A stretch of DNA of 56,346 nt from Chloroflexota bacterium (lineage in GTDB: Bacteria > Chloroflexota > Dehalococcoidia > Lucifugimonadales > Lucifugimonadaceae). Shown here piece by piece: positions 980-52,876 of this stretch (its first letter is position 1; every line of letters begins with the position of its first letter). Made by a program: the position numbers and the translations under genes. Below the pieces are notes generated by a model. It did not search any database. It had not been told where the DNA came from and was given only the letters and a program-made list of their open reading frames with translations. The DNA is taken from the NCBI GenBank assembly GCA_002699165.1, contig PABO01000008.1, positions 12,044 to 68,389 on the forward strand. Direction: 5' to 3'.

Positions 980-994
980 TATTAGGAGAATATT

Positions 995-1579: not shown

Positions 1580-1654
1580 AAAAATCTGATTAAATTCAAA
1601 ATTCATATAAATATTGATAGAATAGTATTTAGTGAAAAATTTTCTGGAGGAAAT

Positions 1655-2776: not shown

Positions 2777-2780
2777 ATTT

Positions 2781-31546: not shown

Positions 31547-31575
31547 ATATTTAATTTTACTCTTTTAAGCCTCTT

Positions 31576-32076
31576 TTAAGCTTCTTTTATTTCTTCTGAA
31601 CCAGTTTTAGATAAAATTTCTTTTGCTTTATTTAAGTCTGAATCTTCAACTGATATTACAACTCCAATATAACCTTCAGTAATTCTAGGGTCATAAACAC
31701 CTGGACTTATATTAGGTAACCTTGATTCAAATATAATTCCTATTACACTAAAAATCACCGCCGATAACATAGTCATCTCATACATAATAATTAACATAGC
31801 AAAGATAGAGAGAATTGGTTTACCTCCAGTGATTAGAGGATATGCTAATTGAGTAGCAGTTGTTAGGAATAGAGATAAGCTAAATCCCACTATTGCTCCA
31901 AATGCAGGAAATCTAAATAATCTATGTTGTGGCACATACTCACCAAATGCTCCTTCCGGATATGGAGTTCCAGTTAGAACATCAAATGTACCTTGTTCAA
32001 AACCTCCATCTTTAAATCCATCCATTGCATCTGCAGCATCATTTGGATCTATGTATAAACCTAATAAGCTTTTCAT
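31576..32076 (-). CDS. actD: alternative complex III subunit ActD (DUF3341)
   Basis: 166 aa with a soluble N-terminus then two TM helices. Position between actC and actE. Confidence 0.72.
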   Translation of the reverse strand: MKSLLGLYIDPNDAADAMDGFKDGGFEQGTFDVLTGTPYPEGAFGEYVPQHRLFRFPAFGAIVGFSLSLFLTTATQLAYPLITGGKPILSIFAMLIIMYEMTMLSAVIFSVIGIIFESRLPNISPGVYDPRITEGYIGVVISVEDSDLNKAKEILSKTGSEEIKEA

Positions 32077-32079
32077 TTT

Positions 32080-33471: not shown

Positions 33472-33483
33472 AATACTCCTCTA

Positions 33484-35611: not shown

Positions 35612-35643
35612 CTTTAATTAGAATTTTTTTCTTTATTGTCATC

Positions 35644-37965: not shown

Positions 37966-37995
37966 GATTTCCTCAAAATATTTCTCTTCTTAATA

Positions 37996-38679
37996 CTAAT
38001 GATGACAAGCAGCACAATCAGTAGGTCCTCCATTTTTTCTATGGCAATTAACACATTGCCCCATTTTTAAAGGTTCTACTTGATAAACTTTCTCCATACT
38101 TGCCACATCTCCGTGACAGGTTGAACATACTTGTGATGCAGGTACAGTTTCTTTCCCTTCTAAATCAAGCCTTTCAGGGACATTTCCGATCGCTGAGGGA
38201 TGATTTGTTAAATAATCTATGTGAGCTGAGTGTACAAATCGTACATGATCGGGGAGCCTATGAACTCTTCTCCAGTTAATTGGTGACGCCATTTCAGAAT
38301 CTACAATAACCTGCTTATCTTCAGCATTTTCAAAAATACCGGAAGCTTCTCTCAATTTTATTAGATCTTCACTATCATAACTTCCCACAGCTCTGTGACA
38401 GCTAGCACATAATTCTACTGCTGGAACATGAGCAGAAGAAGCTTTTGCAACTGTTCTATGGCAATATGTACAATCCATTCCAATTCCGCCTTCAGATACT
38501 GGAGCAGCATGTTTGGTATGAGGGAAATTAATAGGTTGATCAAAAGTTTGCTCAAATCCAAGTACAGGCAACGGTTGCCCTAACCAAGCATTAAACAAGC
38601 CCGCTAATAATATAGAAAAAATAGCAAGAGTCGTTAATCCACCTAATCCAACTAGCGGAACAAGAACCTTAACCCACAA
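37996..38679 (-). CDS. actA: alternative complex III pentaheme cytochrome c subunit ActA (N-terminal TM anchor)
   Basis: Five CxxCH motifs: CTYCH, CASCH, CSTCH, CVNCH, CAACH. TTG start from the track has no obvious SD, so the start is uncertain. Confidence 0.83.
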   Translation of the reverse strand: MWVKVLVPLVGLGGLTTLAIFSILLAGLFNAWLGQPLPVLGFEQTFDQPINFPHTKHAAPVSEGGIGMDCTYCHRTVAKASSAHVPAVELCASCHRAVGSYDSEDLIKLREASGIFENAEDKQVIVDSEMASPINWRRVHRLPDHVRFVHSAHIDYLTNHPSAIGNVPERLDLEGKETVPASQVCSTCHGDVASMEKVYQVEPLKMGQCVNCHRKNGGPTDCAACHH

Positions 38680-39199: not shown

Positions 39200-40195
39200 T
39201 TGATAACTAAGGATAAATTAATATGGATTTATGAGACTATGTGCAGGATAAGGTTTTTCGAAGAATCTATGCTTGAGCAAACTTATAAAGGAAATTCTAT
39301 GGGAGTTACTCATCCCTCTGATGGGCAAGAAGCCGTTCCAACAGGAATCTGTGCGCACTTAACTGAAAAAGACTGGATTGGATCAACTCATAGAGGACAC
39401 GGACATTGTATTGCAAAAGGTTTAGAAACTGACAAAATGATGGCTGAGATTATGGGGAAATATACGGGAAACTGCAAAGGAAAGGGTGGATCAATGCATA
39501 TTGCAGACTTCTCTAAAGGAATGCTAGGAGCAAATGCAATAGTTGGTGCTTCAATTCCTTTGGCTGTTGGTGCTGCTTTAACTGCTAAATATCAAAAAAA
39601 AGAAAAAGATTCTATTGGTGTTGCATTTTTTGGAGATGGAGCCTCCTCGCAAGGAGTATTACATGAGTCGATGAATTTAGCATCTATTTGGAAATTACCA
39701 GTTATTTTTGCATGCGAAAATAATCAATATGCTGAAGCTACTCCTTCTTGGTACGCAGTCTCGGTAGAAGATATAGCTGATAGAGCTGCATCCTACAATA
39801 TTCCAGGAGTTATAGTGGATGGGATGGATGTTTTTCAAGTTTATGAAGCTGCTGAAGAAGCAGTATTACGAGCCAGAAAAGGTTTAGGTCCAACATTATT
39901 AGAGCTTAAGACTTACAGATATCATGGCCATTTTCATGCAGATCAACCAGAAAAATATAGAACTAGCGAAGAAGAAAAAATTTGGAAGAATAGAGATTGT
40001 ATTAAGACTTTTGAAAAAAAAGTTCTTGATCAAAAATTAATGACCAAGAAAAAATTAGACTCGATTAAAAAAAATATTGAAAAAGAAATAGAAGCAGCTG
40101 TTGAATTTGGGTTGTCTAGTCCCTTGCCTCCAACAGAGACTCTCTATGAGGACGTTTATGTAAATTATTCAAATGATCTAAAAGGTTTAAGATAA
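39200..40195 (+). CDS. thiamine-diphosphate-dependent 2-oxoacid (pyruvate/acetoin) dehydrogenase E1 alpha subunit
   Basis: GDGASSQGVLHESMNLASIWKLPVIFACENNQYA TPP-binding motif; YRYHGHF. Confidence 0.85.
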   Translation: MITKDKLIWIYETMCRIRFFEESMLEQTYKGNSMGVTHPSDGQEAVPTGICAHLTEKDWIGSTHRGHGHCIAKGLETDKMMAEIMGKYTGNCKGKGGSMHIADFSKGMLGANAIVGASIPLAVGAALTAKYQKKEKDSIGVAFFGDGASSQGVLHESMNLASIWKLPVIFACENNQYAEATPSWYAVSVEDIADRAASYNIPGVIVDGMDVFQVYEAAEEAVLRARKGLGPTLLELKTYRYHGHFHADQPEKYRTSEEEKIWKNRDCIKTFEKKVLDQKLMTKKKLDSIKKNIEKEIEAAVEFGLSSPLPPTETLYEDVYVNYSNDLKGLR

Positions 40196-40210
40196 AATTT
40201 AAAGGAAAAG

Positions 40211-41272
40211 ATGACTATAGAAAACAAAAATAGCCTAGGTCCAGGTTTTGAAGTAAAAGGATCACAAATGAGATACAGAGATGCTTTTAACAATACACTA
40301 AGGGCAGAACTAGAGCATGATGAAAATGTATTGATAATTGGAGAAGACATTTCAGGTGGGTTCGACAAAAAGACAAAAGAACCTTTAGATGCTTGGGGAG
40401 GTCCTTTTGCAGCTACTAAAGGTCTTGTACAAGATTTTGGAGTAGAGAGAATAATGGATGCACCAATTTCAGAAGCCGGATTTGTTGGCGCGGCTATTGG
40501 AGCTGCATTGACAGGTTTGAGGCCTGTAGTAGATTTAATGTACTTTGATTTTACTACAGTAGCATTTGATCAATTATTATCTAACGCTGCGAAAAGCCGA
40601 TACATGTTTGGAGGTCAAACGAAAGTCCCTCTTACTCTTTTTGCTAGATCTGGTGGTGGAACTGGTCATGCAGCGCAACATTCAAGTGCTTTTTATTCAA
40701 TTCTAGCCCATATCCCAGGCTTAAAAGTAGTTACTCCTTCTGATGCTTATTCCGTAAAAGGTTTACTTTCAGCTGCGATTAGGGATGATGATCCTGTATT
40801 TGTGGTAAATGATAAAAAATTAATTAATATGACAGGATTTGTACCCGATGAAGAATATCAGATTGAGCTTGGTAAAGGCAGATGTTTGAAAGAAGGAAAT
40901 GATATCACATTAGTTGGGATGAGTTATACATCAGTCGTTTGTAAGGAAGCTTCAGAAAAATTAGAAAAAATAGGAATAAGTGCAGAGGTCATTGATCTCA
41001 TGTCTTTATCTCCACTAGATGAAGATATAGTTATTAATTCAGTGAAGAAGACTAATAGAATTGTCATTGTTGATGAAGATAATCCCAAAGCAAGTATAGC
41101 CAGTGAAATTGCTGCCATAGTTTCTGATAAGGCCTTTGATTTTCTTGATGCACCGGTAAAAAGGGTTACTGCTCCTCATACTCCAGTACCTTACAGCAAA
41201 GGTTTAGAAGAAGAGTTTATGCCTGATAGTGACGATGTCTTTGAAACGGTCAAGAAACTTTTAGATATTTGA
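40211..41272 (+). CDS. 2-oxoacid dehydrogenase E1 beta subunit
   Basis: IIGEDI, RIMDAPISEAGFVGAAIGAALTGLRPV, and a transketolase C-terminal-like domain. An alternative ATG at 40268 also has an AAGGA SD. Confidence 0.87.
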   Translation: MTIENKNSLGPGFEVKGSQMRYRDAFNNTLRAELEHDENVLIIGEDISGGFDKKTKEPLDAWGGPFAATKGLVQDFGVERIMDAPISEAGFVGAAIGAALTGLRPVVDLMYFDFTTVAFDQLLSNAAKSRYMFGGQTKVPLTLFARSGGGTGHAAQHSSAFYSILAHIPGLKVVTPSDAYSVKGLLSAAIRDDDPVFVVNDKKLINMTGFVPDEEYQIELGKGRCLKEGNDITLVGMSYTSVVCKEASEKLEKIGISAEVIDLMSLSPLDEDIVINSVKKTNRIVIVDEDNPKASIASEIAAIVSDKAFDFLDAPVKRVTAPHTPVPYSKGLEEEFMPDSDDVFETVKKLLDI

Positions 41273-41611
41273 TTTTTTGATTTCTTCCACAAGTTCTTTT
41301 TTGTTCACGCAAATTACTGCATCATCATTTATCGCATACGACAGCAAGCTATTATACGGATAAATTCCGCTTTCATGTCCGTCAGACCATAATGGTTGAA
41401 TAGCATATTTTCCTACTATAAGAAAATCAACTACAATTATATCTTCAGAAACCTCCGCTACTTTTAATAATTTTCTACCTGTTAGCTCTTCCACGCAATT
41501 GGCACATGCACACTGAAGTCGGAGATATTTATAAGGATAGAGGCAAGAGATATCCTTTTGCCAAATAATTTCTAAGCCATCACTTAATCTATTTACAGCT
41601 TTTGGTTCCAT
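41261..41611 (-). CDS. DUF971 (gamma-butyrobetaine hydroxylase N-terminal-like) zinc-binding protein
   Basis: LRLQCACANC...VGKYAIQPLWSDGHESGIYPYNSL matches the DUF971 pattern. Confidence 0.68.
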   Translation of the reverse strand: MEPKAVNRLSDGLEIIWQKDISCLYPYKYLRLQCACANCVEELTGRKLLKVAEVSEDIIVVDFLIVGKYAIQPLWSDGHESGIYPYNSLLSYAINDDAVICVNKKELVEEIKKSNI

Positions 41612-41710: not shown

Positions 41711-42772
41711 ATGAGAGATATTATAAAGGTTGGAATTGTAGGAGCTGGGGGAAATACTGTATTAAAACATATTCCTCTTCTTCAAAAAATTGATGGAGTT
41801 GAAATAGTTTCAGTTGCAAATAGGTCTATTAAGTCATCTAGTGCTGTTGCTTCTCAATTTGAAATAAAAAATTACTACGATAATTGGCATGAGGTAGTTT
41901 ATGATAATGGATTAGATGCAGTGGTAATTGGTACATGGCCATATATGCATAAAAAACTCACATTAGAATCCTTGCAATCAGGAAAACATGTTTTATGTGA
42001 AGCTAGAATGTGTATGAATGCTGAGGAAGCAATGGAGATGTATGATTGTGCTCAAAACTATCCAAATTTAGTTTCTCAAATTGTACCTGCTCCCCATACT
42101 TTACCAATTGATAAAACAATCATAAGACTAATATCTTCAGGTTTTATAGGAGATTTGATAAATCTAAGAGGAATGGTAACAGCCGGGAATGATTTTCCTA
42201 AAGATCAACAAGAGTTTCATTGGAGAAATAATAGAGATTTGTCAGGAAATAACATCATGCAAATGGGTATTTGGTATGAAGCAATAATGAGATGGCTAGG
42301 CCCAGCGAAATCTGTTAGTGCGAATGCCCAAACTATAATGAATCCAAGAATAGATTATGATGGTAACTATGCCTACACAGATATCCCTGATCATCTTGAT
42401 TTATTATGTGAAATGGTCAGTGGAGGTACTGCTAATCTGCAATTCACAATGGTTTCTGGTATGGCACCTGAATCTGAAATGTGGATTCATGGAACTAAAG
42501 GTACAATAGTAGTAAAAACTGAGACTACTGATGATCCTGGTGCACCTGCATTGAAGTTATATGGAGCAGAAAAAGGTCAGAAAAGGCTGGAAGAAATAAA
42601 AGTTCCTGATGAAGAAAAAGGATCATGGCGAGTAGAAGAAGAATTTATAAATGCAATTCGCGGCGAAGAAATTATTACTCATACTAACTTTACAGATGGA
42701 GTAAAGTATATGAAATTTACAGATGCAATTTTTGATTCATATTCAACAGGGCAAAAAATTTATCTTACATAA
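41711..42772 (+). CDS. Gfo/Idh/MocA-family NAD(P)-dependent oxidoreductase
   Basis: IKVGIVGAGGNTVLKHIP Rossmann start; HVLCEARM (EKP-like motif region). Confidence 0.8.
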   Translation: MRDIIKVGIVGAGGNTVLKHIPLLQKIDGVEIVSVANRSIKSSSAVASQFEIKNYYDNWHEVVYDNGLDAVVIGTWPYMHKKLTLESLQSGKHVLCEARMCMNAEEAMEMYDCAQNYPNLVSQIVPAPHTLPIDKTIIRLISSGFIGDLINLRGMVTAGNDFPKDQQEFHWRNNRDLSGNNIMQMGIWYEAIMRWLGPAKSVSANAQTIMNPRIDYDGNYAYTDIPDHLDLLCEMVSGGTANLQFTMVSGMAPESEMWIHGTKGTIVVKTETTDDPGAPALKLYGAEKGQKRLEEIKVPDEEKGSWRVEEEFINAIRGEEIITHTNFTDGVKYMKFTDAIFDSYSTGQKIYLT

Positions 42773-42773
42773 T

Positions 42774-43538
42774 ATGAAAAGAGTAGATTTAAATGCAGAT
42801 ATTGGAGAATCTTTTGGATCATATAAGCTTGGTTATGATGAAGAAATTGTAAAATATATTTCATCAGCAAATATAGCTATGGGCTTTCATGCTGGAGATC
42901 ACAATTGGATCAAAAAAACTGTAGATTTATCTCTAGAACATAAAGTTTCAATAGGTGCTCATCCTTCATATCCTGATCTTGCAGGATTTGGAAGAAGAGA
43001 AATGTCTATGACTTATGAAGAAATTGAAAATTTGATTAAATACCAAGTCGGCGCTTTGATTGGATTTGTTGGTTTAGAAAATATTTCACATGTAAAACCA
43101 CATGGAGCTCTATACAATAAAGCAGTAAAGGATGAAATTACTGCTAAAGCTATAATTAGTTCTATAAAATCTATTAGTAAAAATCTTATTCATGTTGTCC
43201 TTGCAGGTTCTTTATGGGAGCAAATCGCCTTGGATTCAGGTGTAAAAATTTCCAGAGAAACATATGCTGATAGAGAAATTATGTCTGATGGATCTCTTTG
43301 TCCTAGATCTGTGAAAGGATCAGTGATTGAGGATCCACAAAGAATAGTTAAAAGGACTCTTCAAATGGTAAAAAATAATGAAGTTGAAACTTTCGATGGA
43401 AAAAAGATTGAAATTGATTTTGATTCAATATGTCTGCATGGAGATACTAAAGGTTCAGTTCAAATAGCTAAAAGTATAAAAAAATCATTTGAAGAAAATA
43501 ATATAATTATTTCCTCAATGTCTGATGTCATTCTATGA
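42774..43538 (+). CDS. pxpA: LamB/YcsF-family protein (5-oxoprolinase subunit A homologue)
   Basis: MKRVDLNADIGESFG..., HAGD, VKPHGALYN. ATG at 42774, 1 nt after the upstream stop. The track start at 42723 overlaps the upstream gene. Confidence 0.85.
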   Translation: MKRVDLNADIGESFGSYKLGYDEEIVKYISSANIAMGFHAGDHNWIKKTVDLSLEHKVSIGAHPSYPDLAGFGRREMSMTYEEIENLIKYQVGALIGFVGLENISHVKPHGALYNKAVKDEITAKAIISSIKSISKNLIHVVLAGSLWEQIALDSGVKISRETYADREIMSDGSLCPRSVKGSVIEDPQRIVKRTLQMVKNNEVETFDGKKIEIDFDSICLHGDTKGSVQIAKSIKKSFEENNIIISSMSDVIL

Positions 43539-44203
43539 AAAAAAAATTTCTTTTAAGTTTTCATGGTGACTCTACTTTAGTAATAAAATTTGGTGAACTA
43601 ATTGATAATGATACCAATCAATTAGTTCATAGTTTAATTGATAAGTTAGAAGGAGATTTTATATCTAAAAGTTATATTTTAGATATTTATCCTACATTTA
43701 ATAATATTGTTATTAATTATGATAATTTACTGATTGATTTTGAAGCTTTGCGCATAGAAATAAATAAAAAAATATTACTTTATTTAGAAGATTATAAACC
43801 TGATTTACAACGAAATAATATAATTGAAATTCCTGTGAAATATGGAGGCGAATATGGTCCAGATTTAATTGATATGTCTAAAGAACTGAAAATTTCTGAG
43901 GATAAAATAATTGATATTCATACTGAGAGTTTATATAGGATTTTTATGATAGGTTTTATGCCTGGCTTCCCCTATTTAGGAGGATTAGATGAAAAAATAT
44001 CTTTTCCAAGACTTTCTACTCACAGAATTTCTGTTCCTGAAGGATCAGTTGGTATTGCAGGAATGCAAACAGGAATATATCCATTTGCATCACCAGGAGG
44101 ATGGAATATTATTGGAAGAACAGAAAAAATCTTATTTGATCCAAAGGAAAATCCTCCAGCTTTATTAAGAAGTGGATCTAGTCTAAGGTTTATAAGTATA
44201 TGA
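43535..44203 (+). CDS. pxpB: KipI/AHS1 (CT_C_D)-family protein (5-oxoprolinase subunit B homologue)
   Basis: IEIPVKYGGEYGPDL, MIGFMPGFPYLGGLD, VGIAGMQTGIYP. ATGA overlap with pxpA. Confidence 0.8.
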   Translation: MKKKFLLSFHGDSTLVIKFGELIDNDTNQLVHSLIDKLEGDFISKSYILDIYPTFNNIVINYDNLLIDFEALRIEINKKILLYLEDYKPDLQRNNIIEIPVKYGGEYGPDLIDMSKELKISEDKIIDIHTESLYRIFMIGFMPGFPYLGGLDEKISFPRLSTHRISVPEGSVGIAGMQTGIYPFASPGGWNIIGRTEKILFDPKENPPALLRSGSSLRFISI

Positions 44204-45240
44204 TTAAGGTTATAAATTCTGGATTGCTATCGAGCTTTCAAGATAAAGGGAGATATGGTTATAAAAAATTTGGAGTTTCTAGATCAGGTTCTTTAGATTT
44301 TTTTTCCTTTGATTTAGCTAATAAATTGACAGGTAATTATTTCAATGAGCCCTGCTTAGAAATAATTGGAGGCTTCTCATGTTTGTTCTTAGAAAATACT
44401 ATAATTTCAATAACAGGCCCTTTAGATTTTTTTTCTGTAAATGAAAATTTTATTTATAGAACTAATTCTTCAATAAGATTAAATGCTGGAGATAAGCTGG
44501 ATATACCTAATAGCCAAAAAGGTAATATATTTTATTTATCTGTTGCAGGTGGTTTTAGAATACAAGAAGTTTTAGGATCTTACTCTTATCATCAACCTTC
44601 AAATATAACTAATTCATTGAAAGTATCTAATGGAGATATGATTAAATTAAAAATTAATAACCAAAATAATTTATTCATTTCTCAAGATGATTTTTTTGAA
44701 AAAAATATATTTAATGAGCAAAGTATTAACATAATTTATGATCAAGAATCTAAGTCAGAGAATATTAAAAGTTTTTTTGAAGATAAAGAATTTATAATTT
44801 CAGATCAATTTAGCCGTCAGGGAATTAGACTAATTGGAGAACAGGCTAATTTTTTTAAGGATCAAGATGAAATTTCTTCAGAGGTTTCTGCTGGAACTAT
44901 TCAGCTTCCTCCTGATGGTAATCCAATTATTTTATTGAATGATTCTCAAACGACTGGAGGGTATAAGAAAATTGGAGCTATCCCTAAATTTGAATTATCT
45001 AAGCTTTGTCAAAAAAAAATTTCTTCTAAGGTTAAATTTTCTGAAATTTCGTTGAGTGATTCTATTTCTAAATTTCGTAAATTGAAATCAGAATTTGAGA
45101 ATATAAATATTCAAAATTATACAAATAAAGTACTTGAAATAAATGGTAGATTGATTTCCGTTCAAATTTTAGAAAATAATAGTATAATATCGATATCTGA
45201 TGGTGAGCAATTTGAAGTAATCGAGGATAGTTTTGAATAA
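44200..45240 (+). CDS. pxpC: KipA/AHS2 (CT_A_B)-family protein (5-oxoprolinase subunit C / biotin-dependent carboxyltransferase family)
   Basis: MIKVINSGLLSSFQDKGRYGYKKFGVSRSG, SRQGIRL, GTIQLPPDGNPIILLNDSQTTGGYKKIG. ATGA overlap with pxpB. Confidence 0.8.
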   Translation: MIKVINSGLLSSFQDKGRYGYKKFGVSRSGSLDFFSFDLANKLTGNYFNEPCLEIIGGFSCLFLENTIISITGPLDFFSVNENFIYRTNSSIRLNAGDKLDIPNSQKGNIFYLSVAGGFRIQEVLGSYSYHQPSNITNSLKVSNGDMIKLKINNQNNLFISQDDFFEKNIFNEQSINIIYDQESKSENIKSFFEDKEFIISDQFSRQGIRLIGEQANFFKDQDEISSEVSAGTIQLPPDGNPIILLNDSQTTGGYKKIGAIPKFELSKLCQKKISSKVKFSEISLSDSISKFRKLKSEFENINIQNYTNKVLEINGRLISVQILENNSIISISDGEQFEVIEDSFE

Positions 45241-45613
45241 TTCATTAATTGATGGTTTTAATTTATTTTGGATAGGAACCAGTGTTGTTTTTGTAGTTTT
45301 AATTGTACTTTTGGTTTCTATAAATATTCTTACTTTCATTGAAACTAAATTTTTTCAAAAAGATAGCGCTAATAATAAAATAATCAATCAAGAAAATGAT
45401 GATAATCTTATGGATATAGCAGCAGCAATTGCAGTTTCAATTTATAAAAAAAGTAAAAGTAGAACAAATGAAATAGCAGCAGCAGTTGCAGTTTCTTTGT
45501 ATCAAAATAATAAAAATAAAATAGATAACGCTAATAAAATAAATACAATTGAATCATCTTGGATTACAATTAATCGTTCTAGGATGATGCATAAAAAAAC
45601 TAAAAGGGTGTAA
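45233..45613 (+). CDS. OadG-like (decarboxylase gamma/delta) single-TM protein with duplicated AAA(I/V)AVS(I/L)Y motif
   Basis: N-terminus LIDGFNLFWIGTSVVFVVLIVLLV resembles OadG (L-EG-NLM--GMG-VF-FL). Cytoplasmic tail has two 19-aa repeats. TTG start overlaps pxpC by 8 nt. Confidence 0.55.
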   Translation: MNNSLIDGFNLFWIGTSVVFVVLIVLLVSINILTFIETKFFQKDSANNKIINQENDDNLMDIAAAIAVSIYKKSKSRTNEIAAAVAVSLYQNNKNKIDNANKINTIESSWITINRSRMMHKKTKRV

Positions 45614-45614
45614 T

Positions 45615-46079
45615 TTGAGTAAGTATAAATTAAGTATAAATGGTCAAAGCTTTGATGTAGAAATTATTTCAGAAAATAATAACTCATTTGAAGTTATGGT
45701 AAATGGCGAAATTTTAGAAGTAGAGAAAGACAAAGAATCATCAACTAAACTTACTAGTTCAAATACTCCAAAAGAAATTGTTAGCAATACATCTAATTCT
45801 AAAAATGACTCAAGTATTACTAAAACTCAAAAAACTAAATCTGATCCTATAGATTCTAAGATAAAAGGAAATTCAATTAATGCTCTTATGCCTGGAAAGG
45901 TATTAAAAGTTTTAGTATCTGAGGGACAAATAGTTGATTCAGATGCACCTTTATTAGTTATTGAATCAATGAAAATGGAAAATGTTATCTCGTCTAGCAA
46001 ATCAGGAAAAATAACAAAAATACATGTCAATGTTGATGACAATGTTCAGTATGACCAACCATTGATTGAAATAAATTAA
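45615..46079 (+). CDS. biotinyl carrier protein of MmdC/GcdC/OadA-C type
   Basis: YKLSINGQSFDVEI N-domain, long S/T/N/K-rich linker, C-terminal PLLVIESMKMENVI biotinyl-lysine motif. TTG start 1 nt after the previous stop. Confidence 0.8.
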   Translation: MSKYKLSINGQSFDVEIISENNNSFEVMVNGEILEVEKDKESSTKLTSSNTPKEIVSNTSNSKNDSSITKTQKTKSDPIDSKIKGNSINALMPGKVLKVLVSEGQIVDSDAPLLVIESMKMENVISSSKSGKITKIHVNVDDNVQYDQPLIEIN

Positions 46080-46096
46080 ATTTTGAGAATATATAA

Positions 46097-47296
46097 ATGA
46101 TAGATTACATAGAACCTTTAATTGAAGGAATTAATGACTTAATTTCTAATCCAAAAATGATAATAATGTGGATTATTTCAGGTCTTCTTTTCTATGTAGG
46201 TATATACAAAAAGAAAGAACCTTTATTACTAGTTCCAATTTCGAGTGGAATTTTATTGGCAAATCTTCCCATGGGTGAATTAATTCGAATTGGAGGTAAT
46301 GGAGAGCCTGATGGCTTTCTTAGGATTTTTCAAAATATAGGAATGACAAATGATCTACTTCCATTATTGATTTTCTTAGGAATGGGTGCATTGACAGACT
46401 TTGAACCGGTTCTTTCTAATCCTAAAACATTACTTTTAGGAGCCGCAGCTCAAATTGGAGTTTTTGCCGCATTATTAGGGGCATTATTTATAAGTATGAC
46501 TCCCTTTTTTGATTTTGGGTTACTTGAGGCTGCGTCAATAGGAATTATTGGTGGTGCAGATGGTCCTACCACAATTTTTATATCTACAAGAATGAGAGAA
46601 ATTGGGAATAGTTTACCTTTATACCAAATGAGCGATATTGTGGGTGCAACTGCTGTTGCAGCATATTCTTACATGGCTTTAGTTCCAATAATTCAGCCTC
46701 CAATCATAAGATTGTTTACCACGAGAAATGAACGTAGAATCAGAATGGATTATTCTGATAAAAAGATTTCTAAAAGAACAAAAATTTTGTTTCCAATATT
46801 AACGATTATCATAGTTAGTATTTTAGTCCCAGATGCATCTCCGCTTATTTCAATTATGATGTTTGGAAATATTTTGAGAGAATCTGGGGTTGTTGATAGA
46901 CTTGCAAAAACTGCACAAAATGAACTTATGAATATAGTAATTATTTTGCTTGGATTATCAGTTGGGGCTACAATGCCAGCTAGTGTCTTCTTGAAAATAG
47001 AAACAATTTCAATTTTTATTCTTGGACTTGTATCTTTTATATTTGCAACAATTTCTGGTATTTTACTCGCAAAAATAATGAATCTATTTTTGAAAAAACC
47101 AATAAATCCTATGATAGGTGCGGCTGGAGTATCAGCCGTTCCTATGGCGGCAAGAGTAGTACAAAATGAAGCATTCAAGGAAGATCCCGAAAACTATATT
47201 CTTATGCATGCTATGGGTCCCAATATAGCTGGAGTAATTGGTACAGCAACTGTTGCAGGTGTTCTTTTGGCTATCGTTCCACAACTGGTGGGATAA
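46097..47296 (+). CDS. sodium-ion-translocating decarboxylase beta subunit (OadB/GcdB/MmdB family)
   Basis: 399 aa, polytopic. GILLANLP, GMGALTDF, GIIGGADGPT, GAAGVSAVPMAARV segments are typical of the OAD_beta family. Confidence 0.87.
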   Translation: MIDYIEPLIEGINDLISNPKMIIMWIISGLLFYVGIYKKKEPLLLVPISSGILLANLPMGELIRIGGNGEPDGFLRIFQNIGMTNDLLPLLIFLGMGALTDFEPVLSNPKTLLLGAAAQIGVFAALLGALFISMTPFFDFGLLEAASIGIIGGADGPTTIFISTRMREIGNSLPLYQMSDIVGATAVAAYSYMALVPIIQPPIIRLFTTRNERRIRMDYSDKKISKRTKILFPILTIIIVSILVPDASPLISIMMFGNILRESGVVDRLAKTAQNELMNIVIILLGLSVGATMPASVFLKIETISIFILGLVSFIFATISGILLAKIMNLFLKKPINPMIGAAGVSAVPMAARVVQNEAFKEDPENYILMHAMGPNIAGVIGTATVAGVLLAIVPQLVG

Positions 47297-47299
47297 ATA

Positions 47300-48055
47300 A
47301 TGGAATACTCTATATATATTTATTTAATTTTATCTATACTCTGCTTACTTATTGGATTCTTGGGAGGTTTTTTAGGAATTGCTTTAGGAGCAGTTAGATT
47401 ACCAATTATTATTATTTTAGGTATAGAACCTATAATTGCTGCATCTACAAATTTATTAGCAGTCATATTTGGATCTTTTGCTGGTTTGATCCCCGCAATA
47501 AAACAAAATAGAGTTCCTCTAAGATCTTCTTTTATAATTTCAATTCCATCAATGATTGCAGCTTTTTTAGGAGGTTATTTCGCACTTCAGATACCAGAAT
47601 TAGTATTGCTCATTATAATGATTTTTTGTCTAGTTTTATCAGGCTTAGTTATGACTTTTTATCAGTTAAGTGAGTCTGAGGACAAAAATTCAAAGATAAG
47701 TTCTTACAAAGAAATTATTGTAGGGATTTTAATATCATATTTTGGAGGAACCGTTGGTTTAGCTTTAGGTGTTTTGAGAGTTCCAGCATTCGTATATTTT
47801 CTTAAGATGAATATTAAAACTGCTGGAGGCATAAACCTATTATTGTCAATTTTAGTAGGGATTTCAGCTTATCTTGGTCATTCTTTCTCAGGAGGAATTG
47901 ATTATTATCTTGTGGTAGTAATTGTCTTTCCAACTATAATAGGAATGTACTTTGGTTCGCGATTTGTAACAATTGCTAATGATAATCAGCTTAGAAAAAT
48001 CCTAGGATTTACTTTACTTGTTTTAGCCTTAGTGTTACTGGTAAGAGAGATTTAG
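47300..48055 (+). CDS. TauE/SafE (DUF81) family anion permease
   Basis: 251 aa, about 7-8 TM, internal duplication with G-rich helices (GGFLGIALGAVRLP / GGTVGLALGVLRVP). 3-nt gap after the beta subunit. Confidence 0.72.
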   Translation: MEYSIYIYLILSILCLLIGFLGGFLGIALGAVRLPIIIILGIEPIIAASTNLLAVIFGSFAGLIPAIKQNRVPLRSSFIISIPSMIAAFLGGYFALQIPELVLLIIMIFCLVLSGLVMTFYQLSESEDKNSKISSYKEIIVGILISYFGGTVGLALGVLRVPAFVYFLKMNIKTAGGINLLLSILVGISAYLGHSFSGGIDYYLVVVIVFPTIIGMYFGSRFVTIANDNQLRKILGFTLLVLALVLLVREI

Positions 48056-48077
48056 GCAGAATCTATTGACTCTGCCT
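48054..48077. terminator. 7-bp stem / 10-nt loop hairpin between convergent tauE-like and sodN genes (possible bidirectional terminator)
   Basis: AGGCAGA (48054-48060) pairs with TCTGCCT (48071-48077), with T/A-rich flanks. It is the only convergent junction in the window with a hairpin. Confidence 0.4.
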
Positions 48078-48087
48078 ATAAAATCTA

Positions 48088-48507
48088 TTATTTTTTAGTT
48101 TCCCAAAAAATATCTCCAATTTCTTCTAAAGCAGCCTTAAATTCTTTAGCTTTTTCAAGATCTACATTAACTTTTACGTGAGATCCAAGCTTACAAGCAT
48201 TCCAAACTTTTTCGTGAAGATCAGGATACTTTTCTAGGTGTTCAGGTTTAAAGTAATCTGTCCAAATTACTAAAATATCATCTTTAGCTTTCTTTGCATG
48301 TTCTTCTTTTGCTGTAACGTATCTAATCATAGAATTAGCCCCAGAAACTCCAGATGGATATTCTAGTTCAAGCATTAATTCAGTCATTCTTACAACTGTT
48401 TGAGCTGCTTGTATTGCATCTTTTGGATCGTATATTCCACACGGAATATCACAATGACTGGTAGCTTCATGCACATTGAATACTTTTTCAAAAATATTAC
48501 TTAACAT
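48088..48507 (-). CDS. sodN: nickel superoxide dismutase precursor
   Basis: Propeptide MLSNIFEKVFNVHEATS followed by the HCDIPCGIYDP Ni-hook. ATG at 48507 has a GGAGAA SD. The 45-codon upstream extension in the track is rejected. Confidence 0.9.
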   Translation of the reverse strand: MLSNIFEKVFNVHEATSHCDIPCGIYDPKDAIQAAQTVVRMTELMLELEYPSGVSGANSMIRYVTAKEEHAKKAKDDILVIWTDYFKPEHLEKYPDLHEKVWNACKLGSHVKVNVDLEKAKEFKAALEEIGDIFWETKK

Positions 48508-48631
48508 TTTTTCTCCTTGTTTGATTTTTTTATTGTAGCTATAGAATATATATATTATGCTAAATTTCCAAAGTTTGATAATACCTTTTATTAAAAATTT
48601 TATAAATATACTTTTTTTTCGAAAGAAATAT

Positions 48632-49021
48632 ATGATTTTCAAAATCTCTGAAATTCATAGTAATAGTATGGAACCTAATTTTCATGAAGGAAACTATTAC
48701 ATAGTAAAAAAAAATTCAGATACTAAAAAAATAAAAAGGTTCGATGTTTTAGTATATTTTTGTAAAATACACAATCTTAATCACATAAAAAGGGTTATTG
48801 GATTACCCAATGAAAAATTATTATTTAAGGGAAAAGAATTCTTTATTGATAACAAATTTATCAAAACCTTTTCAATCTCAGATTCTATAAGATTAGAGTT
48901 TGAAATTGATGATAATTCACTGTTTTTATTATCAGATAATTTATCATTATTTGGAAAATCTTGTGATTCAATTAAGAATGGTCCCATTGAGAAAGAAAAT
49001 ATTATAGGTTTTATTATTTGA
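48632..49021 (+). CDS. sodX: S26-family signal-peptidase-like Ni-SOD maturation protease
   Basis: HSNSMEPNF (S-M-x-P nucleophile box) and IKRVIGLPNEKL (K-R box). Divergent from sodN. Start taken at ATG 48632. Confidence 0.7.
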   Translation: MIFKISEIHSNSMEPNFHEGNYYIVKKNSDTKKIKRFDVLVYFCKIHNLNHIKRVIGLPNEKLLFKGKEFFIDNKFIKTFSISDSIRLEFEIDDNSLFLLSDNLSLFGKSCDSIKNGPIEKENIIGFII

Positions 49022-50291
49022 AATATTTTTCTACTAACTTCTTTGATGATAAGACTGCTGTTTCCATTGTGTTTGGTAAATCTTTTATAGTCCAATCTCC
49101 AACGTAATACATTTTTTTATTCTTTTGATTTAAATCTTTATATCCAGTTTGAGTCTGAGTAGCTTTTGGGGATCTGATTAGTAGTGATTTTATAGTTTTA
49201 GTTTTTTGAGAAATATTAAGTTCTTTTCGTAAAGTTTTTTCGTAGTCTGATATTAGTTTTTCATTGGATAACTTAATTAGATTTCCTACTGCACTTAAAG
49301 AGATTACGATTCTAAATTCTTTATTTTTACTTCTAAATTTATTATCAGAAAATATCCATTCTAATTTTGAGTTACTAAAGCTAATAAAATCTTCATCTAT
49401 TACTTTCTTATCAAACCAAAAATATATGTTGATAATCCCATCTGTAGAAAGTTTTATTTTTTTACTATTCAAACCACCTAAATTAATAGCATTACTAATA
49501 TTTGTAGCTAAAATAACTTTGTCATATTTTAGATTTTGATTTTTTCCTTCAAGTAAATATTTTTTTTTAGAATAATGTATATTTACTATTTTTTCTCCAA
49601 GAAATAAATTTGAATTATTTTTCTTTATATAATTTCTGTAATTCTCACTTAATATTTCACTAAAAGGTTTTTTGAAAAAGCAAATACCAATATTTTTTTT
49701 ATAATTGAAAATCATGGTTTTGAATAAATTTACGGCATGATTTATTGGAATTTTGTTAAGTTTTGAATTAAATGCAGGGATACAAATGATTTCCCAAAAC
49801 TTTTTTATCATTTCATTATTTTGATTATTTTTTTTCAACCAAGATTCCAATGATATTTTAGATTTATGATTATCTAGTTTTGATAGCTTGTATAAAGCAA
49901 ATATTATTTTCAATCTCTCATAAAACTTTAAGTTTTTATAGTTTAATACTGAAAAAATTAAATTTAGAGGGTATATTGAGACATTTGATTTAAGGTGGTA
50001 TTTTTTTGAATTTTCTTGAATTACGATTTTTAATTTTTTCCCAATACTTAGATATTTTGTGCTGCTTAATTTTTCTAATATTTCAATAAAATTTTTGTAT
50101 GACGGTAAAAAAACATGCTGACCTATATCAATACTTTTTTCATCTTTATTTATTGAACCGGCTCTTCCCCCTAAGTTTTTTTTGGATTCATAAATATCTA
50201 CTTTATAACCTTTTTCAATAAGATATACAGATGTAGCTATCCCAGAAATACCTCCGCCAATAATTGCTATTTTTTCTTTATTTTTTTTCAA
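49014..50291 (-). CDS. FAD-dependent amine-oxidase-fold desaturase/oxidoreductase (HpnE / CrtI-CrtN-like)
   Basis: IAIIGGGISGIATSVYL...YESKKNLGGRAGS dinucleotide-binding signature, C-terminal YYVGDW. 425 aa is closer to HpnE length than to CrtI. Confidence 0.65.
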   Translation of the reverse strand: MKKNKEKIAIIGGGISGIATSVYLIEKGYKVDIYESKKNLGGRAGSINKDEKSIDIGQHVFLPSYKNFIEILEKLSSTKYLSIGKKLKIVIQENSKKYHLKSNVSIYPLNLIFSVLNYKNLKFYERLKIIFALYKLSKLDNHKSKISLESWLKKNNQNNEMIKKFWEIICIPAFNSKLNKIPINHAVNLFKTMIFNYKKNIGICFFKKPFSEILSENYRNYIKKNNSNLFLGEKIVNIHYSKKKYLLEGKNQNLKYDKVILATNISNAINLGGLNSKKIKLSTDGIINIYFWFDKKVIDEDFISFSNSKLEWIFSDNKFRSKNKEFRIVISLSAVGNLIKLSNEKLISDYEKTLRKELNISQKTKTIKSLLIRSPKATQTQTGYKDLNQKNKKMYYVGDWTIKDLPNTMETAVLSSKKLVEKYFK

Positions 50292-51193
50292 TTTTTAAAA
50301 AGGGATTTGAGTATTGATTTGATTATTATTATAAATTTTTCAAAAGAATTTGTTTTAGGTTTTTTCTGGAGTATTTCTGATTTATTTTTTTTTATTTTAT
50401 TAAGAATAATTTCACCCGAGCTAATGAATATTTGTATTATAATTGAGTCTTTTCTACTTAAATGTGATGTTAGTTTTTGTCCTTCGATATATAGATTTTT
50501 ATTAATATCCACTAATTCAATTATCAAGTTCTCAAATTGTTTTTTTATATCATTATCATCAGTTATTCTTTGATCAATTGAGTTTGAAATATTAACTTTG
50601 TGCTTTTTTAGTAAATCTTCAGGTATGTATATTCTGTTTTTTTCTAGGTCGATTTTAATATCTTGAATAAAATTTGTTATTTGCAAACCTGTACAAATTT
50701 TATTAGATAATTCAATAAGATTTTTATCAGTATAGCCTAAAATTCTTAAGACAATTTCTCCTACTGGATTTGCAGAATGATCACAATAATAATAAAGCTC
50801 TTCCAGTGATTTGTATTTATTTTTTTTTTGATCTATTGAGTTTGCTTTTATTAATTTTTGAAATGGAACCTTTGATAAATTATATTTTTTTATTGTTTTT
50901 TCTAATGCTATAAAAATGGGGTTTGTAGATTTGCTTTTAAAGGCAAGCTCTAATTGGTTTTTCCAAATTTCTAAACTAGGAAATATTTCTTCTTGAGGAA
51001 GCTCATCTCCTATATAATCTATTCCTCTTGAAAATGCATATATGCTTGCAAAGTCATCCATAAGGTTTTTATTTAGAAAAAACATAAATATTGGAAAGTT
51101 TTCATAGTTTTTATTTATGATTTCATAACAAATCTTAATTGATGCTTTATACGTTAATTTTGATTGATTTTTGTTAAAAATTAAATTTTTCAT
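50288..51193 (-). CDS. squalene/phytoene synthase family enzyme (HpnC/HpnD/CrtB-CrtM-like)
   Basis: YAFSRGIDYIGDE (first Asp-rich motif) and LQITNFIQDIKIDLEKNRIYIP (second motif, NF-QD form as in HpnC-type). ATGA overlap with the downstream gene. Confidence 0.75.
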   Translation of the reverse strand: MKNLIFNKNQSKLTYKASIKICYEIINKNYENFPIFMFFLNKNLMDDFASIYAFSRGIDYIGDELPQEEIFPSLEIWKNQLELAFKSKSTNPIFIALEKTIKKYNLSKVPFQKLIKANSIDQKKNKYKSLEELYYYCDHSANPVGEIVLRILGYTDKNLIELSNKICTGLQITNFIQDIKIDLEKNRIYIPEDLLKKHKVNISNSIDQRITDDNDIKKQFENLIIELVDINKNLYIEGQKLTSHLSRKDSIIIQIFISSGEIILNKIKKNKSEILQKKPKTNSFEKFIIIIKSILKSLFKN

Positions 51194-51194
51194 A

Positions 51195-51857
51195 TCAATT
51201 TATTTTTGAAAATTCTAATATCAATTTTTTTTGAATTATTTCATTCTTGATTTTTCTTGAAGTTATATTATAGAAATATAATTCTTTGAAAAATCTTTTT
51301 ATTACATTCCAGGTACCAGAATTTTGACTCTGGTTCTGATTTATAGGGAAACTTGAATGTATTATTCTAACTAAAGATATTTTGAGAGAATTATTTTGGA
51401 TAAATTGATTTAATTTTGAAGAATAATTATCAATATAAGTTCCACTCAGATTGTCATTAATCCATTTTTTTGCTTTTAATCTTTTATGTATATTTTGTGA
51501 ATTTTCTAATTCTATTCCAGATCCTATGTAATGTTCAAAGGTATGTTTCTCTAATATGTCACAAATAGACTTATTTAATTCTTCATATGTTTCCATCCAT
51601 CTGTCTTCTCTTGGAATGGACCAATTGATTGGCTTAGAATTGTAACTAATAGTTTCTTTTGCAACTACGATACTACCATTGTTAATATGACTAGTAGTTT
51701 GAAGGGCAAAATCTAGAGAAATAATTTTTTCAGGTTTCGAATCATTAATTATTTTTTTTAGTTCACCGAAATCATCATTTTTTTTTGTATAGTAAACTAT
51801 GAAATTTTTACTGTCAGATTTATCTTTAAGGTACTTATTGATTATTAATAGATTCAT
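51195..51857 (-). CDS. hypothetical protein, weak resemblance to PNP/UDP-type phosphorylase fold (HpnG-like) with altered motif
   Basis: By eye only. EKIISLDFALQ...NGSIVVAKE resembles ISFG-AGGL...GD-VVA. TYIDNYSSKL...LVRIIHS resembles AVDMES...LRVV-D. 1-nt overlap with the upstream gene. Confidence 0.35.
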   Translation of the reverse strand: MNLLIINKYLKDKSDSKNFIVYYTKKNDDFGELKKIINDSKPEKIISLDFALQTTSHINNGSIVVAKETISYNSKPINWSIPREDRWMETYEELNKSICDILEKHTFEHYIGSGIELENSQNIHKRLKAKKWINDNLSGTYIDNYSSKLNQFIQNNSLKISLVRIIHSSFPINQNQSQNSGTWNVIKRFFKELYFYNITSRKIKNEIIQKKLILEFSKIN

Positions 51858-52876
51858 TACTTTGTTCGATGCATCAAGAAAAAGTTTGTATCCAAAAGCA
51901 TTAGCTTGTATTTATCATTTATATCTAATTTTTCAATTAATGATATCGTAAGTTTGTATTTATCATTCAGTATTGAGTTACAGTAAGATTCAATTTTATA
52001 TTTATCCATCAGGTTTAGAATAATCGTTTTATCCTCTTCGCTAATTTTTTTGTTAAAAATTTCATTAATCTTTTCTTTATCTGTGACATCACAAGTTTGG
52101 ATAAGTTTTAATATTGGGAATGATTTCTTTTTCTTTAATATATCGCTTCCTATAGGTTTTCCGAAATCTTTATTCCCCCATATACCTAATACATCATCTT
52201 TTATCTGGAACATATGACCAAAAGTATTTCCTATTTCTTTAAAAATCTCAGTTGTTTTTTTATTACTTGGTTCTAATACAGAACCTAATATAACTGAAGT
52301 TTTAATTAGTGCTCCTGTTTTCTTCTCAATCATGCTTAAGTAATTCTCTACACTGATTTCTTTTGATGATTCAAAATCAATATCTAAATATTGACCTTCA
52401 ATTACTTCTATGCATGTTTTATTAATTATTTTTCTAAGTTCTACTAATTTATTTTTATCCTTAATATCAATATTTTCAATTGCTTTACTTGCCAATGCAT
52501 GCATAGAACTGCCAGAAATTATTCCAACCTCTTCTCCCCAAATTTTCCATACTGTTTTACGATTTCTTCTAAATTCATCTCTATCTTCAATATCATCATG
52601 AATTAATGAAAAGTTATGAAATAATTCTATAGACATTGCCAAAGGTAGGATATTTTTTTCTTTACCTCCCAATGCTTCATTTATAAGCATCATTATAGAA
52701 GGCCTAAAAGCCTTCCCTGTGGCATTATCATCCTTTCCATTCTCTTTTATCCAACCTAAAAAATATTTATGAGTTATGTACAAAGGATCATCAAGCTTTT
52801 TGTAAAAATCTTTTGTAAATTTATTTAATTCTAATTGATATTTATTAAATAATTGTGGTAGTTGGGGTTTTCTCAT
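51857..52876 (-). CDS. polyprenyl diphosphate synthase (FPP/GGPP synthase family)
   Basis: LIHDDIEDRDEFRRNRKTVW (FARM) and FQIKDDVLG (SARM). Confidence 0.85.
   Translation of the reverse strand: MRKPQLPQLFNKYQLELNKFTKDFYKKLDDPLYITHKYFLGWIKENGKDDNATGKAFRPSIMMLINEALGGKEKNILPLAMSIELFHNFSLIHDDIEDRDEFRRNRKTVWKIWGEEVGIISGSSMHALASKAIENIDIKDKNKLVELRKIINKTCIEVIEGQYLDIDFESSKEISVENYLSMIEKKTGALIKTSVILGSVLEPSNKKTTEIFKEIGNTFGHMFQIKDDVLGIWGNKDFGKPIGSDILKKKKSFPILKLIQTCDVTDKEKINEIFNKKISEEDKTIILNLMDKYKIESYCNSILNDKYKLTISLIEKLDINDKYKLMLLDTNFFLMHRTK

Follow-up and report, generated by a model that had tools for sequence, protein, structure and literature searches.

A SAR202 operon that joins PxpABC-type genes with genes for the membrane module of Na+-translocating decarboxylases

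The subject of this study is a stretch of 56,346 nucleotides (the window) from a Chloroflexota bacterium (GenBank assembly GCA_002699165.1, contig PABO01000008.1, positions 12,044 to 68,389), in which homologs of the 5-oxoprolinase genes pxpA, pxpB, and pxpC share one operon with genes for an OadG-like protein, a biotin carrier, and an OadB-type beta subunit. Judging from sequence, this association of a Na+-decarboxylase membrane module with a nonclassical partner of the KipI/KipA (PxpB/PxpC) type probably represents an undescribed machine. PxpB and PxpC (together PxpBC), the OadG-like tether, the carrier, and the beta subunit probably form one complex. The best explanation of the locus, which we advance tentatively, is a membrane-associated, biotin-dependent complex in which PxpBC would serve as the carboxyl-transfer partner and which, in the reading that we favor, would carry out Na+-driven lactam hydrolysis. 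A full-text literature search found no prior description of a linkage between Pxp genes and a Na+ pump; public annotations of the parts read "glutaconyl-CoA decarboxylase subunit beta," "antagonist of KipI," and "biotin-dependent carboxyltransferase family protein."

The host is a streamlined surface-ocean SAR202 bacterium. Beta proteins identical or nearly identical to that of the window are labeled SAR202, Dehalococcoidia, or Chloroflexota and occur on hundreds of marine metagenome contigs. The GC content of the window is about 30%, and an identical locus lies on the 1.378 Mb contig JBJKVK010000001.1 of GCA_045562635.1. SAR202 are aerobic seawater bacteria with a large inward Na+ gradient. 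For comparison, one genome per species was scanned with the beta protein, which yielded 80 loci, and tblastn was performed with the window proteins. Loci are designated by L numbers.

RESULTS

Organization of the operon

Eight genes on the + strand, in the order GFO/IDH/MocA, PxpA, PxpB, PxpC, OadG-like, biotin carrier, OAD_beta, and TauE, occupy positions 41711 to 48055. The features of the operon are listed here; CT denotes carboxyltransferase.

41711-42772, + strand: NAD(P) oxidoreductase of the GFO/IDH/MocA family, opening the operon (Pfam GFO_IDH_MocA, 1.6e-21, with additional C-terminal domains)
42774-43538, + strand: PxpA-like (LamB/YcsF) subunit, by family a metal-dependent lactam hydrolase (Pfam LamB_YcsF, 1.4e-89)
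43535-44203, + strand: PxpB-like subunit (KipI; CT subdomains C and D; Pfam CT_C_D, 6.7e-63)
44200-45099, + strand: PxpC-like core (KipA; CT subdomains A and B; Pfam CT_A_B, 7.7e-51)
45100-45237, + strand: residues 301-346 of PxpC, its C-terminal extension of two hairpins, with homology to the carrier N-terminal anchor and the OadA association domain
45233-45613, + strand: OadG-like subunit (Pfam OAD_gamma, 27.6 against a cut-off of 27; TIGR01195, 28.3 against a cut-off of 36)
45615-46079, + strand: biotin carboxyl carrier of the MmdC/GcdC type (Pfam Biotin_lipoyl, 2.1e-17; full-length match to NF004173)
46097-47296, + strand: Na+-translocating carboxybiotin decarboxylase beta subunit, by family assignment (Pfam OAD_beta, 1.3e-141; TIGR01109, 465 against 191)
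47300-48055, + strand: TauE/SafE-family anion permease, final gene of the operon (Pfam TauE, 1.2e-38)
48053-48078, strand not assigned: terminator-like hairpin with an 11-bp stem between the convergent TauE and nickel superoxide dismutase (NiSOD) genes, closing the operon

With the PxpA start at 42774, the successive gene junctions are +1, −4, −4, −8, +1, +17, and +3 nt. This start is the most likely one, based on the annotation of the identical contig in GCA_045562635.1 (L003). An earlier note, made from the sequence alone, had described the same array; every open reading frame (ORF) was present at the coordinates that it gave and on the + strand, and the one change needed in its layout was to move the PxpA start from 42723 to 42774. 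The domain assignments that it had proposed for checking were recovered with Pfam for LamB_YcsF, CT_C_D, CT_A_B, Biotin_lipoyl, OAD_beta, and TauE. The OadG-like call is weak by score, since it only just reaches the Pfam cut-off and fails that of TIGR01195. For the GFO/IDH/MocA gene, every NCBIfam equivalog scored far under its cut-off. A promoter scan was uninformative, with 41 sites compared with 42.8 expected in AT-rich DNA, and tRNA and Rfam scans of the window gave no matches.

The pump module

The OadG-like protein has a single N-terminal transmembrane (TM) helix, two cytoplasmic amphipathic AAAIAVSxY helices (nt 45413-45445 and 45470-45502), and, at the C-terminus, a basic SSW..R.R motif; the overlap between its start and the stop of PxpC is 8 nt. 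In alignments, its position, TM helix, and AAAIA helix motif agree with those of the OadG-like genes of L005 through L097, the score itself being at the cut-off only. The number of AAAIA helices was considered as a marker of Pxp linkage and was rejected, because two helices occur in the low-GC clade only and the other linked lineages have one.

The carrier consists of an N-terminal anchor domain of ~38 aa (45615-45728), a long polar linker, and a biotinyl domain, in which the biotinyl lysine is Lys120 in ESMKME (nt 45972-45974). The NCBIfam models for OadA align carrier residues 19-153 with OadA 476-594, and the nearest chain in the PDB is the gamma chain of the Pyrococcus horikoshii methylmalonyl-CoA decarboxylase (MMD).

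The beta subunit matched Salmonella OadB (6iva) at 7.9e-105. Residues E41, D155, Y192, R268, N275, N337, G341, S346, and N376 correspond to OadB E40, D203, Y229, R304, N311, N373, G377, S382, and N412, respectively; the pairing of E41 with E40 was read by hand from the alignment of the two proteins. These Salmonella residues are essential for Na+ binding or activity (PMC7274780). All of the essential OadB residues are therefore kept in the beta subunit, as is the MKM lysine in the carrier, and the loss of Na+-site or biotin-site residues that the earlier note had named as a possible refutation did not occur.

The Pxp subunits

PxpA passes the NCBIfam subfamily model NF003814 (328 bits, cut-off 226), and its best solved relatives are PH0986, TTHB195, PA4511, and YbgL. 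Relatives of PxpB in the PDB are PH0987, KipI, YbgJ, and MSMEG_0436. PxpC is under both NCBIfam cut-offs of the PxpC type (154 against 500 and 197 against 230). Its AlphaFold2 (AF2) model, which has a mean predicted confidence (pLDDT) of 90.6, was matched by Foldseek to YbgK (4.7e-26), MSMEG_0435, TTHA0988, and urea carboxylase; for the urea carboxylase structures 3va7 and 5i8i, the E-values were about 1e-19 to 1e-20. The model TIGR02712 matches PxpB, PxpC, and the carrier in part only.

A docking domain on PxpC

The PxpC of the window is 346 aa long, compared with 310 aa for Escherichia coli YbgK and 306 positions in the PxpC model. The extra ~45 C-terminal residues (...KVLEINGRLISVQILENNSIISISDGEQFEVIE) resemble the N-terminus of the carrier (KYKLSINGQSFDVEIISENNNSFEVMVNGEILEVE), and such an extension is present in all of the carrier-linked PxpC proteins. 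When a profile of the extension was compared with a profile of the carrier N-domain by hhalign, the probability was 95.5-95.8% (P about 1e-8), and the score was 37.7, compared with 7.3 ± 2.1 (maximum 16.2) for 100 column shuffles. The extension was absent from 55 canonical PxpC C-termini (hhalign 0.1%), and YbgK, with its 310 aa, has no room for it. A hidden Markov model (HMM) of the extension was also run against about 5,500 sequences, comprising the ORFs of the loci and the retrieved PxpC homologs. The ten best non-self matches were all carrier N-termini, including those of Bacteroidales carriers; the best of these had an E-value of 5e-4, and weak matches to other proteins appeared only from E 0.46 up. 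The homology is clear only with two-hairpin profiles: a first carrier-anchor HMM, built mostly from one-hairpin carriers of Clostridia, matched the PxpC tails weakly. In the AF2 model the extension is a beta-meander of three to four strands (304-314, 317-324, 328-334, and 336-338).

The carrier-anchor HMM also matched an OadA/PycB-type protein (domains HMGL-like, PYC_OADA, and Biotin_lipoyl) at residues 501-519, which lie between PYC_OADA and Biotin_lipoyl at the site of the "association domain." In the classical enzymes the C-terminal helix of gamma binds the association domain 1:2, and alpha needs this helix to stay on beta-gamma (PMC7274780). The carrier GcdC is considered to be anchored through its N-terminus, and GcdD/OadG to be the connector (PMC7145394). 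Because the extension is homologous to this anchor/association domain, PxpC has gained the module by which a transferase or carrier hangs on the small membrane subunit in classical systems.

Among the PxpC loci viewed, the distribution of the extension followed that of the carrier. In 10 of 10 lineages with a two-hairpin PxpC extension the carrier gene adjoins, and biotin genes were found nearby in none of the seven loci (L089-L091, L094, L095, L099, and L100) in which PxpC has no extension or a single hairpin. A minority of non-SAR202 PxpC proteins terminate in a single hairpin of the form KYxVxVNGxxYEVxVE, which resembles carrier N-termini, and have no biotin genes nearby (P0140, P0141, P0143 of L091, P0235, P0239 of L095, P0319-P0330, and P0342). 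P0143 is from a Fusobacterium, a genus with a Na+-pumping glutaconyl-CoA decarboxylase (GCD) (PMC7145394).

Absence of a classical carboxyltransferase

The earlier note had stated that neither a carboxyltransferase nor a biotin carboxylase is encoded in the 56 kb, and the Pfam data bear this out for that stretch. Neither the operon nor the rest of the 56 kb encodes a carboxyltransferase of the OadA, MmdA, GcdA, or MadCD type, and no biotin carboxylase, as ATP-grasp domain or as subunit, was found by Pfam within the 56 kb. Coverage came from the precomputed Pfam calls of identical contigs (4430-56346) and from our own scan (26-5108). The only HMGL-like protein (7512-9134, − strand) was considered as a hidden OadA and rejected; its HCS_D2 and LeuA_dimer domains mark it as a synthase of the LeuA/CimA type.

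Conservation of the linkage

Whether OAD_beta occurs with AHS1/AHS2 (PxpB/PxpC) genes elsewhere had been proposed for a neighborhood survey, and the co-occurrence recurs across SAR202 lineages. The block PxpA-PxpB-PxpC-OadG-carrier-OadB was found in L005-L008 (beta 86% identity, PxpC 48-49%), in L010-L014 and L016 (beta 64-72%, PxpC 31-33%), and in the high-GC loci L096 and L097. The block-bearing SAR202/Dehalococcoidia lineages range in GC content from 30% to 63%, and the beta subunits of the linked loci form one Chloroflexi clade in a neighbor-joining tree without support values. Because the block spans these lineages and the beta subunits form one clade, we conclude that the linkage is old. 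It is no chance packing in one genome, the possibility that the earlier note had named as a refutation. No Pxp genes were detected by tblastn beside the beta gene in roughly 70 loci of Firmicutes, Bacteroidota, Desulfobacterota, or archaea; among the loci retrieved, the linkage was seen in Chloroflexi only.

A variant arrangement was found in L098 (67% GC), which shares the wider synteny (Alternative Complex III [ACIII], E1 alpha/beta, DUF971, and GFO) and whose PxpC protein, P0270, occurs on seven contigs. The gene order is PxpA, PxpB, PxpC with the extension, a 69-aa ORF, and the carrier. As in the window, there is an 8-nt overlap between the PxpC stop and the start of the ORF that follows, here a GTG. 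The 69-aa product can be aligned with OadG over the cytoplasmic portion of the latter (the AAAVAVVLALAEQ helix and an SAW..GRRR..R tail) and lacks a TM helix. OadB and TauE were not found nearby. In a locus with no OadB nearby, therefore, the tether and carrier stay with Pxp.

The window and L005 belong to two low-GC clades, between which rates of evolution differ strongly from gene to gene: amino acid identity was 89% for E1, 86% for beta, 82% for GFO, 73% for TauE, 68% for PxpA, and 57% for PxpB. The three proteins proposed to dock with one another (PxpC, OadG, and the carrier) all had 48-49% identity and are thus the fastest evolving, at an equal pace.

Flanking genes

Several genes next to the Pxp-pump block are also conserved.

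39200-41272, + strand: E1 alpha and E1 beta of a thiamine pyrophosphate-dependent 2-oxoacid dehydrogenase (Pfam E1_dh, Transket_pyr/Transketolase_C)
41261-41611, − strand: DUF971/GBBH-like_N small protein between E1 beta and GFO (Pfam GBBH-like_N, 1.1e-18)
L009 11322-12218; L010 11222-12112; L012 11250-13126 (two copies); L013 7857-8729; L016 11218-12102; L097 12352-13248: gene of the dihydrodipicolinate synthase (DHDPS) family

GFO is directly 5' of PxpA in L005, L010, L013, L014, and L016; in L097 and L098, RadC lies between the two, with one further, unassigned ORF there in L098. The position of the E1 pair is kept in L005, L010, L016, L097, and L098, with no E2 or E3 gene found nearby in the window; the pair is probably on a transcript separate from that of the Pxp operon. 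The DUF971 gene overlaps the E1 beta stop, and its position is kept in L005, L097, and L098. Kept beside the Pxp operon from 30% to 67% GC, the E1 pair and DUF971 may belong to the same pathway. TauE is 3' of OadB in L009-L016 and L097, with the DHDPS-family gene in between. This gene (of the pyruvate aldolase or dehydratase type) is present between OadB and TauE in every lineage that is not low in GC, including L009, which lacks Pxp, and is absent from the clade of the window. The conserved GFO gene, the DHDPS-family gene, and the upstream E1 pair suggest a wider catabolic route.

In L094 (6498-10694) an unrelated, biotin-free cluster contains LamB_YcsF, CT_C_D, CT_A_B (a single-hairpin PxpC), a radical SAM gene, and TauE. 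TauE here accompanies a biotin-free pxp cluster, and it may therefore act as an alternative transporter of the Pxp substrate that does not depend on the sodium pump.

The remaining neighbors are of other kinds. Directly upstream of the E1/Pxp region (28709-38679, − strand) are cytochrome c maturation genes (CcmF and CcmH) and then an ACIII-like cluster, with a molybdopterin subunit (35644-37965), a multihaem c7-like protein (37996-38679), Fer4_11, two NrfD proteins, ActD, and cytochrome c; this neighborhood is also found in the 67% GC relative L098. Downstream (48088-49021), the NiSOD gene (Sod_Ni, − strand) is beside a divergent S26 signal-peptidase-like gene (a SodX-type maturation protease); the 184-aa superoxide dismutase ORF is probably over-extended, public gene calls giving 139 aa. 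It is followed by an isoprenoid cluster (49014-52876, − strand) with an amine-oxidase-type desaturase (425 aa), a squalene/phytoene synthase (301 aa), a polyprenyl synthetase (339 aa), and a 220-aa protein with no Pfam match. At the other end of the window (2781-5108, + strand), a gene for a 775-aa protein of the penicillin-amidase family (Ntn hydrolase) adjoins leucine-biosynthesis genes (Aconitase_C and Iso_dh).

DISCUSSION

Comparison with known systems

Four known systems share parts with the SAR202 operon. The Na+-transport decarboxylases (oxaloacetate, methylmalonyl-CoA, glutaconyl-CoA, and malonate decarboxylases) have in common with it an OAD_beta subunit in which the essential Na+ and catalytic residues are all kept and a carrier of the MmdC/GcdC type with N-terminal anchor, flexible linker, and MKM biotinyl domain; the gene order delta, carrier, beta is common to MMD and GCD clusters and the SAR202 operon. 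The SAR202 OadG-like protein, with one TM helix and amphipathic helices in the cytoplasm, resembles their gamma/delta subunit, its score being at the cut-off. They differ in that the operon and its 56 kb have no HMGL/PYC_OADA, Carboxyl_trans, or MadCD transferase and contain instead PxpB and PxpC of the KipI/KipA fold, with a docking domain, and a LamB/YcsF hydrolase. The known hosts are fermenters, whereas SAR202 lives in oxygenated seawater, and in its system the direction is likely reversed.

The PxpABC enzymes (E. coli YbgJKL, Bacillus subtilis KipI/KipA/YcsF, and Corynebacterium glutamicum PxpABC) are built from the same three subunit families, also clustered. PxpA and PxpB of the window score above NCBIfam cut-offs, and the PxpC core has the fold of YbgK and the same invariant residues. 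The SAR202 PxpC, however, is under the equivalog cut-off and has the extra carrier-type anchor, and the SAR202 genes are translationally coupled to those for the tether, the biotin carrier, and the Na+ channel subunit. The canonical companions, an Nramp/YcsG-type or PxpT transporter and D-Glu cyclase, are missing from the SAR202 operon, which has TauE instead. In some proteobacteria pxp clusters are linked to accB/accC; the two plasmid loci viewed, of Methylobacterium and Cupriavidus, are canonical pxpABC.

In urea carboxylase (Kluyveromyces lactis, 3va7 and 5i8i), A-B and C-D subdomains of the same kind make up the carboxyltransferase, which moves a carboxyl group between N1' of biotin and an amide nitrogen; a KipI/KipA fold and a biotin carboxyl carrier protein (BCCP) are also present in the SAR202 operon. 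There the transferase domain is followed by a hairpin, a linker, and the BCCP. In urea amidolyase the N-carboxylated product is broken down by a hydrolase that acts downstream, which makes CO2 an activating group, and the logic proposed for SAR202 is the same. In the SAR202 system the ATP-grasp biotin carboxylase domain would be replaced by the membrane beta subunit, the subunits are separate polypeptides that the tether would join, and the hydrolase is of the LamB/YcsF type rather than an amidase-signature allophanate hydrolase.

The closest physical precedent is mycobacterial. MSMEG_0435-0436, stand-alone PxpC/PxpB homologs, bind BCCP domains in a 2026 cryo-EM structure (PDB 9yx5), and MSMEG_0435 holds the biotin "positioned to participate in a carboxylation reaction" at a site equivalent to that of urea carboxylase (PMC13012033). 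The likeness is that a stand-alone PxpC/PxpB pair physically binds BCCP and biotin. In the same system, beta-hairpins of the subunits that bear the carrier are brought together by AccE, a small helical tether, much as is proposed for the OadG tail and its anchors. The mycobacterial pair is encoded apart from the carrier, whereas the SAR202 pair is co-transcribed with carrier, tether, and PxpA and has an anchor domain of its own.

Proposed complex and direction

In the complex that we propose, the TM helix would hold the OadG-like subunit beside the OadB-type beta subunit, and its cytoplasmic helices would bind two homologous beta-hairpin anchors, the N-terminus of the carrier and the C-terminus of PxpC; PxpB would be brought along by the docked PxpC. 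The biotinyl domain, on its long linker, could swing between the beta subunit and a site on PxpBC equivalent to the carboxyltransferase site of urea carboxylase. The direction of the reaction is most likely opposite to that of the classical pumps. Na+ influx through the beta subunit would drive the formation of carboxybiotin from CO2 and biotin, PxpBC would move the carboxyl group onto the ring nitrogen of a lactam, PxpA would hydrolyze the ring activated by N-carboxylation, and CO2 would leave the resulting carbamate spontaneously. In sum, lactam + H2O would yield an amino acid, with CO2 acting catalytically and the sodium gradient paying in place of ATP. TauE would possibly carry the anionic substrate or product, and GFO and the DHDPS-family enzyme of other lineages would take part in the same catabolic route.

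The reverse direction is favored because it gives every part a job. It also agrees with the modest energy demand of 5-oxoproline hydrolysis; the equilibrium constant for 5-oxoproline to glutamate is 0.035, or about +8 kJ/mol. By homology, 5-oxoproline is our best guess for the substrate, a default choice only. The cell is bathed in roughly 0.5 M Na+, which fits this direction, and in 1984 Dimroth and Hilpert reportedly reversed oxaloacetate decarboxylase and MMD in vitro with a Na+ gradient. We infer that the beta-less L098 is easier to understand if in that lineage another enzyme carboxylates biotin and the carboxyl group then goes to the Pxp substrate. The scheme in its full detail, in which a reversed OadB-type subunit acts as a "sodium-driven biotin carboxylase," tethered PxpBC N-carboxylates 5-oxoproline or an analog derived from dissolved organic matter, and PxpA opens the ring, is possible but rather unlikely to be correct as it stands.

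Alternative explanations

Several points weigh against a tethered complex with PxpBC as transferase. We know of no demonstrated case of carboxyl transfer by stand-alone PxpBC and of no established case of a reversed beta subunit in physiology. The characterized PxpABC family hydrolyzes ATP and has no known need for biotin; the PxpC core of the window keeps 21 of 21 columns invariant in that family, and PxpB is above the TIGR00370 equivalog cut-off (208.5 against 145.6). The closest non-SAR202 relatives of this PxpC (35-37% identity) belong to ordinary pxpABC clusters that also contain Nramp and D-Glu cyclase genes. Single-hairpin PxpC tails occur in the biotin-free clusters L091, L094, and L095, and a hairpin by itself is therefore no proof of coupling to a carrier. 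Within 10 kb of the OadG-carrier-OadB trios of L009, nested in the clade, and of the sister loci L017-L019, neither Pxp nor transferase genes are found; the trio is therefore able to work with a partner encoded elsewhere. In L097, prpB, prpC, and prpD (methylcitrate) are 3' of TauE, which would fit an MMD.

The trio-only loci, the scores of PxpA and PxpB and the family-typical PxpC core, the canonical setting of the nearest PxpC relatives, and prpBCD in L097 all favor the view that the operon holds two independent neighbors, an ATP-dependent PxpABC 5-oxoprolinase and the membrane components of a Na+ decarboxylase of the methylmalonyl-CoA type, with an MmdA/PccB-like transferase elsewhere and a synteny that stems from a SAR202 ancestor. 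In Acidaminococcus, gcdA and gcdDCB are in separate operons, a precedent for a distant transferase gene. We regard this view as unlikely, if a serious contender, because PxpC bears a fused carrier-type anchor in all linked lineages, one that canonical PxpC lacks, the 8-nt start-stop overlap of PxpC and OadG occurs in both the window and L098, L098 keeps the tether tail and carrier with PxpABC in the absence of beta, and the linkage survives a PxpC identity of ~30% and a doubled GC content.

The evidence for a single complex applies equally to a forward Na+-pumping decarboxylase, in which PxpBC would load biotin from an N-carboxylated or related substrate and beta would export Na+, as the earlier note had preferred. 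Forward is the direction of all characterized members of the beta family, and, to go by urea carboxylase chemistry, transfer between allophanate and biotin, from one N-carboxy-ureido group to another, should be near isoenergetic. The forward decarboxylase has no plausible substrate, however: the operon suggests none with enough decarboxylation energy (20-30 kJ/mol to spare), and the large inward Na+ gradient of an aerobic SAR202 cell in seawater opposes pumping on 20-30 kJ/mol. PxpA, a ring-opening hydrolase, would have no obvious role, and the beta-less L098 would have no sink for carboxybiotin. We consider the forward direction distinctly unlikely. Less likely still is a regulatory role, in which PxpBC would dock on the tether, sequester the biotin of the carrier, and so throttle a Na+ decarboxylase with its transferase elsewhere. 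The docking domain on PxpC fits this equally well, and the sole experimental PxpC-BCCP case is one of inhibitory sequestration: for the mycobacterial pair, urea carboxylase activity was tested and not detected, and host carboxylase activity was lowered (PMC13012033), results that also count against PxpBC as a transferase. The co-transcription and conservation of PxpA throughout, and the retention of all invariant PxpC residues of the active-site type, point instead to catalysis, and a constitutive, stoichiometric inhibitor seems wasteful in so streamlined a genome.

The proposal of the earlier note, that the PxpB/PxpC pair is the missing carboxyltransferase, thus stands in part. The tie of the pair to the carrier and pump is carried by the conserved linkage, the docking domain, L098, the mycobacterial precedent, and the intact residues; these do not extend to carboxyl transfer itself.

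Significance

For decades the sodium-pump decarboxylase family has comprised four substrate types and has been thought a specialty of anaerobes. If the complex with PxpBC is real, it would add a fifth, structurally unrelated "alpha" module to that family, and would do so in a bacterial clade that ranks among the most abundant in the oxygenated ocean. It would also give a concrete role in biotin chemistry to the widespread and oddly annotated KipI/KipA (PxpB/C) proteins, a question reopened by the 2026 mycobacterial structure. If the reverse direction is true, the enzyme would be an ATP-free 5-oxoprolinase or lactamase powered by the Na+-motive force, the first physiological reversed Na+ decarboxylase, and the first stand-alone KipI/KipA pair to be a true carboxyltransferase, and a streamlined oligotroph would have swapped an ATP-consuming repair or catabolic step for a cheaper coupling to an ion gradient.

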